From a virus (lineage: Duplodnaviria; Heunggongvirae; Uroviricota; Caudoviricetes), in the IMG/VR virus record IMGVR_UViG_648276659_000002, positions 1-11,556 of that record: DNA of 11,556 nucleotides; one strand, written 5' to 3'. Below the pieces are notes generated by a model. The model was not told where the DNA came from and did not search any database. It was given only the letters and a program-made list of their open reading frames with translations. The translations under genes were made by a program, and so were the position numbers. Each line of letters starts with the position of its first letter. Position 1 is the stretch's first letter. This document shows positions 5,624-10,576 of this stretch, piece by piece.

Positions 5624-5791
5624 ATGACCATCTACATCACTGAGCTAATAGCAGGGTTATCGTTACTAATGGTTCTTACTGTATATATTATTAAGTATAT
5701 TCTTTATGCGAATAAAAAAAACCAATTGATCACGATGAGCTTCTGTCAACATTATCATATGACTCAGAAACAGGAATATTTAAATGGCTAA
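5624..5791 (+). CDS. Possible small membrane peptide (55 aa); competes with the HNH N-terminal region
   Basis: ATG 5624 immediately after the helicase stop, with GGAG 6 nt upstream. Encodes one hydrophobic helix (IYITELIAGLSLLMVLTVYIIKYILY). Overlaps the frameshifted HNH reading frame in AT-rich DNA, so it may be spurious. Confidence 0.25.
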   Translation: MTIYITELIAGLSLLMVLTVYIIKYILYANKKNQLITMSFCQHYHMTQKQEYLNG

Positions 5792-6318
5792 AAACAAATT
5801 CAGTAGTAAGAGTAAAAGGTAGTATTGCTGGAGGTGTTAGTGGTGGTTATATATGCATTAGCATAAATAATGTTTTGTATTATGCGCATAGGCTTGCTTG
5901 GTTCTATGTATACAAAAAATGGCCTCCTAAGTTTATTGATCATGTAAATGGGAACAGACTTGACAATAGGATTTCAAATCTAAGACTGGCAACAGAGGAG
6001 CAGAATGCAAGAAACATTGTAGGTAATAGGTTAAACACATCCGGTGCGATTGGAGTGTCTTGGGATAAGACAACTGGCAGGTGGAAGTCTTATGTTGGTT
6101 ATAAAAATAAGACAATATCGTTAGGGTATTTCGATAGCAAAGAAGATGCAGCATTCATAGCAGCACTAGCAAGAAAGAAACTATATGGAACTTATGCGAG
6201 TAAAGCACTTAATTGCGAGCATGAGCTTTTATCTCAATTTAATAATGATGAGGATAAACTTGCGGAATATCTTAAGGAAAAATCTAAAAGGACTCGAAAG
6301 CGTGTTAAAAAAAGATAA
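5706..6318 (+). pseudogene. HNH-AP2 endonuclease, copy 1, disrupted by a frameshift in an A8 homopolymer
   Basis: The track ORF (5875-6318) starts at TTG and lacks the N-terminal region. The same frame is open back to 5716 and encodes the conserved N-terminal part (YDSETGIFKW...GGYICI). ATG 5706 is one base out of frame across the A8 run at 5714-5721; A7 would restore a full-length protein of about 200 aa. Motifs HRLAW...DH.NG...N...NLR are followed by an AP2-like segment. Confidence 0.55.
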
Positions 6319-6350
6319 AGGCCTGCTGGTAATCGCAGGCCTTTTTATTT
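6319..6350 (+). terminator. Rho-independent terminator after HNH copy 1
   Basis: AGGCCTGC (6319-6326) pairs with GCAGGCCT (6335-6342) around an 8-nt loop, followed by TTTTTATTT. Confidence 0.7.
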
Positions 6351-6365
6351 GGGGGAGAGTAAATC

Positions 6366-6572
6366 GTGGCTGAGTTTATGCTCGTCGCACTCAAATGCGT
6401 TGGCGTTGGATGGATTCTTCTGACGTTTTTTATTGTTCTGCATAGCTACATTCGTCTTGTGAATGACGGTAAAGACCCATGGTATACGTTGTTTGGCGCT
6501 GCATTTGTCTGGGTGATTATCGGTGTTATGCCTGTCGCTGTAGCAAAAATGGCGTGGCGTTTTGTTAGTTGA
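6366..6572 (+). CDS. Small hypothetical membrane protein (two predicted TM helices)
   Basis: 68 aa, GTG start preceded by GGGGGAGAG. Two hydrophobic stretches. Sits just upstream of ninB. Confidence 0.45.
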   Translation: MAEFMLVALKCVGVGWILLTFFIVLHSYIRLVNDGKDPWYTLFGAAFVWVIIGVMPVAVAKMAWRFVS

Positions 6573-6579
6573 GGTAACG

Positions 6580-7026
6580 ATGAAGCCAATATACATGCTT
6601 CGCAACGAAGCAATCAGAAACAACGCCATAGACGCAATACTCTCACTTCCGATCGACGACAAGTCACCTCACGAAGTCCACATTAAAGAACCAAAGCGGA
6701 GCAATCCTCAAAACCGCCTTATGTGGGCGTTATTGCAGGACGTATCGCGTCAGGTGCTCTGGCATGGAGAGAGACTTGCGCCGGAGGACTGGAAAGATCT
6801 GTTCACTGCCCTGTGGCTTAAGACCAAAAAACTGGAGCAACGAAGTGCGCCTGGTATCGACGGTGGCGTTGTTATGCTTGGCGTGCGTACCAGCAAAATG
6901 CGAAAGGCCAGCATGACTGAGCTTATCGAAATCATGTTCTGGTTCGGCTCAGAGCGCAACGTGCGGTGGAGTGATGACTCCCGGCGAGAGTATGAATGGT
7001 CACAACGAACAGGGAGGGCGGCATGA
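6580..7026 (+). CDS. ninB: NinB (Orf) recombination protein
   Basis: Collinear with lambda NinB as recalled (...QN..W..L.DVSRQV.WHG..L....WK..FTA...SD..R...EW..R.G.RAA). ATG 6580 with GAGG upstream; the track start at 6562 is TTG. Confidence 0.88.
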
Positions 7027-7205
7027 GGCGACAGCGACGAAGTTTCACCGACATAATCTGTGAAAACTGCAATTACCTTCCAACGAAACGTTCCAGAAAT
7101 AAACCCAGGCCAATCCCAAAAGAATCTGACGTTAAAACCTTCAATTACACGGCTCACCTGTGGGATATCCGGTGGCTAAGACATCGTGCGAGGAAAACAA
7201 GGTGA
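7023..7205 (+). CDS. ninE: NinE
   Basis: 60 aa starting MRRQRRS, matching the lambda NinE pattern as recalled. ATG overlaps the ninB stop (ATGA); RBS AGGGAGGG. Confidence 0.78.
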
Positions 7206-7372
7206 TTGACCAAAATCGAAGTTACGAACAAGAAAGCGTCGAGCGAGCTTTAACGTGCGCTAACTGCGGTCAGAAGCTGCATGTGCTGGAAGTTCACGTG
7301 TGTGAGCTCTGCTGTGCAGAACTGATGAGCGATCCGAATAGCTCAATGTACGAGGAAGAAGACGATGGCTAA
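7202..7372 (+). CDS. ninF: NinF (CxxC zinc-ribbon-like)
   Basis: GTG 7202 overlaps the ninE stop (GTGA) with AGGAAA upstream. Product [27 protein letters not shown]... matches lambda NinF as recalled. Confidence 0.78.
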
Positions 7373-8508: not shown

Positions 8509-8711
8509 CGTTCTCAGTAAAAACCATTCCAGACATGCTCGTTGAAGCATACGGAAACCAGACAGAAGTAGCACGCAGACTGAAATGTAGTCGCGGTACG
8601 GTCAGAAAATACGTTGATGATAAAGACGGGAAAATGCACGCCATCGTCAACGACGTTCTCATGGTTCATCGCGGATGGAGTGAAAGAGATGCGCTATTAC
8701 GAAAGAATTGA
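8505..8711 (+). CDS. ninH: NinH
   Basis: 68 aa ([36 protein letters not shown]...), matching lambda NinH as recalled. ATGA overlap with the ninG stop. Confidence 0.85.
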
Positions 8712-9360
8712 TGGCAGCAAATACCGAAATATTTGGGTAGTTGGCGATCTGCACGGATGCTACACGAACCTGATGAAAAAACTGGAGACGATAGGATTCG
8801 ACACCAAAAAAGACCTGCTTATCTCGGTTGGCGATTTGGTCGATCGCGGTACAGAGAACGTCGAATGCCTGGAATTAATCACATTCCCCTGGTTCAGAGC
8901 TGTACGTGGAAACCATGAGCAAATGATGATTGATGGCTTATCAGAGCGCGGAAACGTCAATCACTGGATGCTTAATGGCGGTGGCTGGTTCTTTAATCTC
9001 GATTACGACAAAGAAATTCTGGCTAAAGCTCTTGCCCATAAAGCAGATGAACTTCCGTTAATCATCGAACTGGTGAGCAAAGATAAAAAATATGTCATCT
9101 GCCACGCCGATTATCCTTGTGACGAATACGAGTTTGGAAAGCCAGTTGATCATCAGCAGGTAATCTGGAACCGAGAACGAATCAGCAACTCACAAGACGG
9201 GATCGTGAAAGAAATTAAAGGCGCGGACACGTTCATCTTTGGTCATACGCCAGCAGTGAAACCGCTCAAATTTGCCAACCAGATGTATATCGATACCGGC
9301 GCAGTGTTCTGCGGAAAGCTCACATTGATTCAGGTACAGGGAGAAGGCGCGTGGGCATAA
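8689..9360 (+). CDS. ninI: Ser/Thr protein phosphatase (lambda PPase / NinI type, calcineurin-like metallophosphoesterase)
   Basis: [24 protein letters not shown]...GDLVDRG...GNHE... metallophosphatase motifs, collinear with the lambda phosphatase as recalled. ATG 8689; the track start at 8614 adds an unsupported N-terminal extension. Confidence 0.9.
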
Positions 9361-9869
9361 GAGAACTAAACCTCACCAAAGAACAGCATGATTGGCTGAA
9401 TGGCTGGCTTGAACTGTGGGGTGCATGGGTTTATTCAGGCCGCCTGGAAAAGCGCATGAGCAGCGTAATAGCGAAGTTCATGGAGAGCGTAGAGCCGGGA
9501 AGAGTTATGACAAGGCCAATGTGTAATGATGATGATGGAATGTTGATTTCTCAGGTCGTCGATTCCGTCATGTACATTGACAAGAAAGCCTTTGGCATCC
9601 TCCTCAGCTACTACGCTCATGGTTCATCTAAGCGAGCAATTGCATCCTACTATCACGCGACTGCAAAGCCACGCAAAATGTGTGGACGTGGTGGCGAGGG
9701 ATGGAGAAAACCTTCAATGGCAACCTGTAGAAACGAAATTGACGACATCCTGAAAGCGTCGTTATTTGTTTTGTACCAGCCAATGCAAAATGCTTTCAAA
9801 ATGCGTAAACGTGTTGAGAAAGTTAAGCATGTTGCTGTTAAAAGTCTTGACATGCAATTAGCCATTTAG
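9351..9869 (+). CDS. Q: Late-gene antiterminator Q (QuuD / phage-82-type family)
   Basis: 172 aa with the WGAW motif and RP.C.DDD.M.I segment shared with QuuD-type Q proteins. GTG start overlaps the phosphatase stop. Immediately followed by a strong promoter and short-leader terminator. Confidence 0.75.
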
Positions 9870-9885
9870 CCATAATATTCACATA
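9847..9885 (+). promoter_or_regulatory. pR'-like late promoter (with presumed qut region)
   Basis: -35 TTGACA (9847-9852), 18-bp spacer, -10 CATAAT (9871-9876). Overlaps the Q stop codon. The qut pause element is not delimited. Confidence 0.55.
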
Positions 9886-9916
9886 TGCTGCTGCTTTTGC
9901 ATTCAGCAACCATCAC

Positions 9917-9942
9917 AAGCCCACCTCCTGTGGGCTTTTTTG
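9917..9942 (+). terminator. tR'-like intrinsic terminator
   Basis: AAGCCCAC (9917-9924) pairs with GTGGGCTT (9930-9937) around loop CTCCT, followed by TTTTTTG. About 55-60 nt downstream of the predicted pR' start. Confidence 0.75.
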
Positions 9943-10063
9943 CATTCGCGTGCAATCAAAACAAGAGTCTTAGTGATATGGGCCTGAGATATGGTGGTGG
10001 AAACATCGCTCCGCTCTTGGCTGTCATATCTACGCGAACAGGCTCTATCCCTAAGGTAAAGCG

Positions 10064-10576
10064 ATGAAAGAAATAAAATTAACGCCAGAAATGGTGCTTT
10101 CTGTTGTTGATTACAATCCATCATCAGGCGACTTTCACTGGAGATGGAGGCAGGGGAGAGAGAGGACCACTTTGACATGGAACTCTCGTTTTGCTTTCAA
10201 GAAATGCTCATCAATAAATTCTGATGGGTATTTAATGATTATGATTAATGGTAAAGCATGCCCTGCTCACAGACTGGCATGGTTGATTGTTTATGGCACC
10301 ATGCCCGATGGTTTTATTGATCACATCAACAGGGTAAGAACAGATAACCGGATATCAAATCTTCGTCTTGTCACTCATTCCGAAAATATGCAAAACAGGA
10401 AAATTCAGAAGAATAATAAATCTGGATACCGTGGCGTGTCTTGGGATGCTAAGTACGGGAAATGGAGAGCAAGAATTAATGCGTCTGGAAAGTGTATTAA
10501 CCTTGGATACCATGACACTGCCGAACTTGCCGCTGCGGCTTTTGAGGCAGCCAGAATGAAATATCATACCGTTTAA
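10064..10576 (+). CDS. HNH-AP2 endonuclease, copy 3 (apparently intact)
   Basis: 170 aa with the N-terminal Y...G.F.W region, HRLAW...DH.N...DNR.SNLR HNH core and a C-terminal AP2-like segment (YRGVSWD...W.A.I...G..I.LGY). ATG 10064. Confidence 0.85.
   Translation: MKEIKLTPEMVLSVVDYNPSSGDFHWRWRQGRERTTLTWNSRFAFKKCSSINSDGYLMIMINGKACPAHRLAWLIVYGTMPDGFIDHINRVRTDNRISNLRLVTHSENMQNRKIQKNNKSGYRGVSWDAKYGKWRARINASGKCINLGYHDTAELAAAAFEAARMKYHTV

Follow-up and report, generated by a model that had tools for sequence, protein, structure and literature searches.

The window analysed here, an 11,556-nt stretch of a caudoviral genome (IMG/VR record IMGVR_UViG_648276659_000002, positions 1 to 11,556), carries three genes for HNH endonucleases with a C-terminal AP2 domain, which we call HNH1, HNH2, and HNH3. 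It is 100% identical to the Escherichia coli MS 196-1 chromosome NZ_CP146681.1 and belongs to a lambdoid prophage integrated next to torS. The domains of the encoded proteins, their presence and absence among relatives, their fidelity to one site each, their low GC content, and their separate ancestry argue that the genes most probably represent three independent lineages of free-standing HNN/HNH_3-AP2 homing endonuclease genes, each tied to its own lambdoid site. This agrees with an earlier note on the same DNA, which had read them as free-standing homing endonuclease genes acquired independently rather than by recent duplication. The three genes are the following:

5706..6318, + strand: HNH1 gene, frameshifted, 613 nt, HNH_3 + AP2
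7365..7931, + strand: HNH2 gene, 188 residues, HNH_3 + AP2
10064..10576, + strand: HNH3 gene, 170 residues, HNH_3 + AP2, 99.4% identical to HK629 gp61

Domains and ancestry of the three copies

In all three copies, an HNH_3 nuclease domain (PF13392, E 4e-11 to 4e-18) is followed by an AP2 domain (PF00847, E 2e-4 to 2e-8), and all three match phrog_99 at about 1e-71. Copies 2 and 3 share 34% and 41% protein identity, respectively, with copy 1, and the alignment contains 41 invariant columns, including DH, DNR, NLR, and (E/Q)N. The moderate similarity and common architecture described in the earlier note are thus confirmed, as is the presence of both domains in all three genes, but copy 1 is not one open frame. 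A profile built from the three copies matches plant AP2 structures (WRI1) in its AP2 part with an E value of 4.7e-10 and the homing endonuclease I-HmuI in its HNH part with an E value of 0.0086. In pairwise alignments, the catalytic residues D74, H75, N87, and N96 of I-HmuI have identical counterparts in each copy. The proteins thus combine an HNH_3 nuclease domain of the beta-beta-alpha-metal type, with its catalytic Asp-His, Asn, and Asn, and a C-terminal AP2 domain.

Neither an intron- or intein-encoded enzyme nor a defence nuclease is indicated. No intron family was detected within the window at E values up to 0.1; HNH2 terminates at a stop codon, and ninG, the gene that follows, restarts from its own ATG and ribosome-binding site. 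Among the PADLOC models, matches were confined to those of the 'homing endonuclease' type, which were weak (E 4e-6 to 9e-4), and to ZorE, which was marginal (E 0.007).

The sequences inserted with the three genes, here called cassettes 1 to 3, show no significant nucleotide similarity to one another (best blastn E value 0.014) and are thus not the near-identical sequences expected of recent duplicates. To place the copies within their family, a very large one with 192,903 representatives when clustered at 50% identity (E up to 1e-3), we constructed a neighbour-joining tree with 200 bootstraps from 185 homologous domains of the best 150 of these representatives. The smallest split holding all three copies comprises 61 leaves, and they fell inside a split of at most 10 leaves in only 2.5% of the bootstraps. 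Ranked by identity to each copy among the 185 domains, the other two copies come 11th to 136th. The best matches in non-lambdoid phages, 43-45% identical, stem from virulent Jersey-like, T5-like, and FelixO1-like phages and from Xp10/Xop411, and each of the three copies has homologues among such unrelated virulent phages that match it at least as closely as the other two copies do.

Duplication inside the phage lineage followed by divergence would account for the domain architecture and motifs common to the three copies. It is, however, already effectively refuted: the cassettes lack nucleotide similarity, the copies do not form a clade among the 185 domains, each copy occurs alone in other phages (HK022, Stx1 phages, and HK629), and the full three-gene window was found in a single E. 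coli genome (see below). Independent acquisition is well supported by the same evidence.

Insertion sites and distribution

Cassette limits were set against E. coli 22AR0322 (locus L003), a relative that has none of the three genes and whose flanks are 98-99% identical to those of the window. This comparison yields exact breakpoints for all three cassettes. With GC contents of 0.34, 0.37, and 0.43, compared to 0.47-0.49 for the backbone, the inserts are AT-rich, as the earlier note had stated. Its placement of each gene between conserved lambdoid genes needs amending: copy 2 lies inside the 5' end of ninG, and copy 3 in a predicted late-transcript leader.

Distribution was counted in 5,426 complete E. 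coli genomes. Cassette 1 is present in 127 of these, HNH2 in 538 (530 of them at least 99% identical), and cassette 3 in 41, all at least 99% identical; the full window with three HNH genes at these positions occurs in one, MS 196-1 itself. In 1,880 genomes, an empty linker of site 1 was found (at least 80% coverage), preceded by ren, DnaB-like, or toprim helicase genes. Most related prophages thus lack the genes, which, together with the low GC content, sets them apart from a fixed part of the backbone. Single copies are found in named phages: HK022 gp57 (98.4%), the Stx1 phages AU6Stx1 and SH2026Stx1 (98.4%), and HK629 gp61 (99.4%).

At site 2, the nuclease gene has taken over the start of ninG:

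7394..7989, + strand: cassette 2, 596 bp, GC 0.37, in place of 64 bp of the ninG 5' coding region (L003 6503-6566)
7906..7989, + strand: recoded ninG 5' patch, 84 nt, GC 0.29, with its own AAGGAG ribosome-binding site

The first 29 nt of HNH2 (7365-7393, MAKPARRRC) are the original ATG and first nine codons of ninG, and the 8-nt overlap between HNH2 and the end of ninF is identical to that of ninG in empty alleles. Lambda, with its ninG 5' end at 42,429-42,530, has the empty allele. The patch encodes 28 residues in place of 31, and NinG runs on to 8508. Compared to the original start, the patch shows 66% nucleotide identity and 14/28 identical residues, while ninG from 7990 on is 97.5% identical to the empty allele. 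Patch and nuclease gene are essentially only found together in the E. coli set (532 and 538 genomes, respectively); the remaining 489 of the 1,021 genomes that match the ninG segment do so only from 7990 onward. In 56 IMG/VR contigs, HNH2 is 98-99% identical and always precedes ninG. The gene upstream differs from that in the window in 37 of these contigs, with homology ending 16 nt before the ATG; in 35, homology ends at the ninG stop codon (8508). As a separate observation, the relative E. coli DETEC-E601 has no HNH2, and its ninG (L002 6247-6858) carries an annotation as a pseudogene owing to an internal stop.

A fourth example of this arrangement is found at ninB of E. coli TUM1880 (L004 5829-6846), where another HNH_3 + AP2 gene is fused in frame to the ATG and first 32 codons of a lambda-type NinB. 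The fused gene is followed by a recoded, AT-rich ninB start (102 nt, GC 0.33, 9/34 residues identical), and the remainder of ninB is 96.9% identical to the lambda-type allele. The fused open reading frame (ORF) has been annotated in two parts, as a 'partial HNH' and an HNH gene. Elsewhere in this prophage, a NUMOD4 + HNH_3 gene (L004 2042-2536) separates O from the primase gene, which is followed by an ISVsa5 insertion.

Site 1 is a short linker behind the replication genes:

5624..5655, + strand: left arm of site 1, mini-ORF start (ATGACCATCTACATCACTGAGCTAATA...), directly after the primase-helicase stop codon
5656..6314, + strand: cassette 1, 659 bp, GC 0.34, breakpoints relative to the HNH-free L003
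6317..6344, + strand: backbone terminator hairpin, AAAGGCCTGCTGGTAATCGCAGGCCTTT followed by a T-run, from a terminator scan; fold -18 kcal/mol, z -4.0

When empty, the site holds a hydrophobic mini-ORF of 27 codons (MTIYITELITGLLVIAGLFIWGRVNRG; L003 4514-4600), which extends through a strong terminator hairpin and weakly matches the 27-residue family phrog_5907. The two parts of this sequence lie at 5624-5655 and 6315-6360 in the window. Homology among prophages with three unrelated replication modules begins exactly at the ATG of this mini-ORF. Lambda holds the same sequence in its ren-ninB spacer (lambda 40,571-40,643; L010 372-444), the position of tR2. Cassette 1, flanked by an imperfect 8-nt repeat (5648-5655 and 6315-6322), breaks the mini-ORF after codon 9, and a hydrophobic tail encoded anew at the 5' end of the cassette completes it to a 34-residue ORF, which is annotated in HK022 as gp56. 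The hairpin at 6317-6344 is the right arm of the site and lies outside the cassette; it is present in the HNH-free relatives L003 and L002 and in lambda. Cassette 1 is found at 99% identity behind three unrelated replication modules, with shared flanks of only ~32 nt before and ~45 nt after the cassette. Directly 3' of the hairpin lies a 68-residue ORF (6366-6572; phrog_1165, no Pfam match) that is conserved in relatives with and without HNH1.

The ATG of HNH1 at 5706 is followed by a short reading frame, MRIKKTN (7 codons), and a stop codon. The HNH frame is open from 5716 to 6318 and lies one base off register because of an extra A in the 8-A run at 5714-5721. In HK022, PC6, and TB354, there is one base fewer and an intact 203-residue HNH1 gene, and among the E. 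coli matches listed, the other 29 HNH1 copies, all annotated as intact, have a span of 720 nt, one less than the 721 nt of the window. Removal of one A yields a 203-residue protein equal to HK022 gp57. In the RefSeq annotation by the Prokaryotic Genome Annotation Pipeline, HNH1 is split into an 'HNH endonuclease' pseudogene (5875-5952) and an 'AP2 domain-containing protein' (6055-6318). In the MS 196-1 assembly, three more coding sequences within 41.5 kb (yccM, an Ea22-like gene, and a hypothetical gene) are flagged 'frameshifted', so assembly indel errors are possible: either a +1 frameshift has inactivated HNH1, or sequencing error accounts for the extra base.

Site 3 lies between the antiterminator gene Q and the late genes:

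9847..9876, + strand: predicted late promoter PR', TTGACA-18-CATAAT, 11/12 consensus match, overlapping the 3' end of Q
9877..10580, + strand: cassette 3, 704 bp, GC 0.43, in place of 6 bp
10581..10627, + strand: remnant of backbone leader 'B' with its own terminator (GTAAGCTGCCG...GGTGGCTTTTTT)

PR' is conserved in alleles with and without HNH3, and cassette 3 starts at the next base after the -10 element. It consists of a leader 'A', a 126-nt spacer, and HNH3 with a TAAGGT ribosome-binding site. Leader 'A' contains a -10-like TATGCT (9884-9889) and a terminator hairpin (9917-9937), and its 63-nt segment 9883-9945 folds at -21.5 kcal/mol. As the backbone leader 'B' has a terminator of its own, HNH3 is bracketed by two terminators. 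WCHEC115106 has leader 'A' but no HNH3, and 22AR0322 has leader 'B' alone; the window therefore holds both leader alleles, with HNH3 between them. These alternative leader/terminator alleles of the late promoter (window 9877-9943 and 10581-10627; L011 1201-1265; L003 8454-8500) show no obvious similarity except for a -10-like TA(A/T)GCT at equal distance from the promoter, and they share the downstream sequence.

The layout of site 3 matches that of a standard Q cassette, in which the Q gene is followed by PR', a sigma-dependent pause element, a terminator, and the late genes (Yin et al., bioRxiv 10.1101/651190). In the HK629 record, a 'putative late promoter pR'' is annotated beyond the terminator, at a distance of 30 nt from the HNH gene that follows (L009 1856-1878 and 1966-1971). 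The better promoter match in HK629 lies upstream of the terminator and overlaps the end of Q. Since the site annotated in HK629 is a poor promoter match, we infer that the upstream site is PR'. The two assignments imply different transcript structures.

Proposed homing and the alternatives to it

If the genes are homing endonuclease genes, their spread would begin when a cassette-bearing phage meets a lambdoid genome with an empty site, either on co-infection or on induction in a poly-lysogen. The enzyme would nick or cut the empty allele near the insertion point, and recombinational repair, by Red-type functions of the phage together with NinB/NinG or by host RecA, would copy the cassette from the occupied genome. 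The occupied allele would be immune by virtue of the recoded patches, because the cassette interrupts the site and exchanges the adjacent sequence for a diverged copy. Each cassette would also mend the damage that it causes: cassette 1 by a new mini-ORF tail, cassette 2 by a recoded ninG start, and cassette 3 by a second PR' leader and terminator. Judging from their positions, HNH1, which precedes the tR2-type terminator, would be expressed along with the replication genes, and HNH2 along with the nin genes; HNH3 would come first in the Q-dependent late transcript. The very short shared flanks of cassette 1 and the strict linkage between the ninG patch and HNH2 are indirect signs that such homing may occur.

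Several points weigh against this reading. The Pfam gathering score for AP2 (33.3) is exceeded by copy 3 alone, HNH1 scoring 32.6 and HNH2 22.2. A Foldseek search against the PDB gave no significant match, and the structure model has only moderate confidence, with a predicted local distance difference test (pLDDT) score of 69. HNH1 is out of frame in the window. The near-identity of the cassettes among genomes could reflect recent shared ancestry and heavy sampling of clones of Shiga toxin-producing E. coli instead of drive, because lambdoid mosaics swap modules at gene boundaries without a nuclease. Finally, the prediction of PR' rests on a consensus match and on the comparison of alleles, and the HK629 record differs from it.

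Some of these points would also fit relics, i.e., former homing elements or modules that are now carried passively by lambdoid mosaic recombination at conserved linkers. The frameshift in copy 1 would be in line with such decay, which is progressive after insertion for the HNN-AP2 genes of Xanthomonas phages (PMC2248197), and homology boundaries often lie at gene ends, as expected for module exchange, the ninG end at 8508 being an example. Nevertheless, we consider this explanation unlikely. The catalytic residues are intact in all three copies, the other HNH1 copies among the matches listed have the 720-nt length and are annotated as intact, and each cassette is at least 98-99% identical in many backgrounds. 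Moreover, movement of cassette 1 between backgrounds with so little common flank is hard to envisage without a break at the site.

Domestication for the benefit of the phage is very improbable. The enzymes would then exclude lambdoid competitors, nick DNA for recombination-dependent replication, or assist packaging in the manner of HK97 gp74. Exclusion of markers of competitor genomes is reportedly a by-product of homing by T4 SegF/SegG, HNH proteins are said, after Kala et al. 2014, to be parts of packaging machines, and HNH3 opens the predicted late transcript, ahead of the lysis genes. The genes are, however, absent from close relatives and from lambda, and 3.5 kb with lysis and other genes lie between HNH3 and the start of the small terminase subunit further downstream, while a gene of the HK97 gp74 type would be expected beside terminase or portal genes and conserved in relatives. 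The HNH_3 + AP2 architecture is also unlike the short packaging-type HNH proteins, and the weak profile matches from the defence-system models are to 'homing endonuclease' models. The suggestion in the earlier note that HNH nucleases near packaging or lysis genes may have been co-opted thus finds no support here.

Three independent homing endonuclease lineages therefore remain the reading that we favour. We also put forward, more tentatively, that a 'start-capturing, self-patching' strategy, by which functional sequence is invaded with neither intron nor intein, may be common to these HNH-AP2 genes of lambdoid phages. In both ninG of the window and ninB of TUM1880, the nuclease ORF takes the ribosome-binding site, the ATG, and the first codons of the resident gene. 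If the proposal is correct, the recoded replacement would at once restore the function of the host gene and destroy the target of the enzyme, mosaic boundaries in the nin and late-leader regions would be actively created by the cassettes, and lambda, with three empty sites, would be a ready test bed. In lambda, site 1, site 2, and the ninB site of the TUM1880 lineage are all empty; cleavage specificity, homing, and co-conversion are therefore open to standard lambda genetics.

Gene context and comparison with known systems

Gene order in the window was read from Pfam and RefSeq annotation and is as follows:

Left end of the gene map, minus strand: 332-residue ORF, then cI-type repressor
After the cI-type repressor: cro-like, cII, O
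3743-5623, after O: toprim/DnaB-type primase-helicase
3' of the primase-helicase: HNH1, then 68-residue ORF, NinB, NinE, NinF
After NinF: HNH2, then NinG, NinH, Ser/Thr phosphatase
Right part of the window: Q (9351-9869), then HNH3, P21-type holin, DUF1327

The 332-residue ORF (36-1034, minus strand) adjoins the cI-type repressor, in the position that rexAB has in lambda, and apart from a sub-threshold aRib match no Pfam or PADLOC match was found for it. It may be a lysogen-expressed gene. After HNH3, a tRNA-like remnant at 10775-10833 has a T-arm (GGTTCGATTCCGG) and a weak match to a tmRNA model (E 0.048, far under the gathering score); ARAGORN found no tRNA there. At the matching position, relatives have tRNA-Asn and tRNA-Thr (L004 10975-11130).

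As members of a very common family, the three nuclease genes are ordinary, and GenBank phage records already carry annotations of them; only the frameshift in copy 1 and the start-capturing, self-patching layout go beyond the routine. Both are of relevance for annotation, as the homopolymer frameshift splits copy 1, and the fusion of HNH2 to the ninG start, like its ninB counterpart, is easily misread. For an otherwise ordinary type of selfish gene, the insertions are unusually tidy.

The HNN-AP2 class of free-standing phage endonuclease genes is reportedly also tied to the work of Mehta 2004 (HNH subset 2) and Magnani 2004. In the Xanthomonas phages Xp10, OP1, and Xop411, the proteins have the same motifs (HRLAW, WP, DH, DNR, NLR, EN) and the same order of HNH_3 and AP2 as those of the window. 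As in the window, several divergent copies are scattered over each genome and vary between relatives, and proteins from Xop411 and Xp10, at 43-44% identity, are among the best non-lambdoid matches to HNH3. The window differs in its temperate lambdoid host, in the fixed site of each lineage, and in its defined junctions. HNN-AP2 proteins are an established class of phage homing-type endonucleases, with 6-8 freestanding HNH genes of the HNN-AP2 and HNH types per Xanthomonas phage genome; no conserved flanks were found there, and sequence-independent spread was proposed (PMC2248197).

I-HmuI of Bacillus phage SPO1 (PDB 1U3E), an HNH nicking homing endonuclease, is encoded in a group I intron and has a C-terminal helix-turn-helix. 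The genes in the window are, in contrast, free-standing and encode an AP2 domain instead, and the sequence similarity is marginal (profile E 0.0086). Free-standing endonucleases are also known from T4, where SegF/SegG, which are GIY-YIG enzymes, and the products of the mob genes carry out intronless homing. Homing in T-even phages and in ICP1 resembles the situation in the window in that the nuclease gene is adjacent to a conserved gene, the neighbouring sequence accompanies it in a resistant form, and exchange boundaries fall at nuclease genes. Unlike the T-even Seg genes, the nuclease in the window takes the start codon and first codons of the target gene, and the cassette supplies a recoded start in their place. 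ICP1 has HNH-AP2 homing genes, including a frameshift-split copy, and homing endonuclease gene islands have been described in ICP1 and other phages (PMC10448857).

Among phages of Salmonella, gene 31 of epsilon34 is fused N-terminally to a resident gene (PMC2629481). It parallels HNH2 at ninG and the ninB case in TUM1880, but it lies in the early-left operon, belongs to another HNH lineage, and has no recoded replacement of the host gene described for it (PMC2629481). Lambdoid phages have been noted to contain HNH genes that occur sporadically and are apparently mobile (PMC12315714). The three lineages described here, together with the fourth in TUM1880, would add exact target sites in the best-understood family of temperate phages. 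Homing endonuclease genes are thought to shape phage mosaicism and have mainly been studied in virulent phages, T4, T5, and ICP1 among them.

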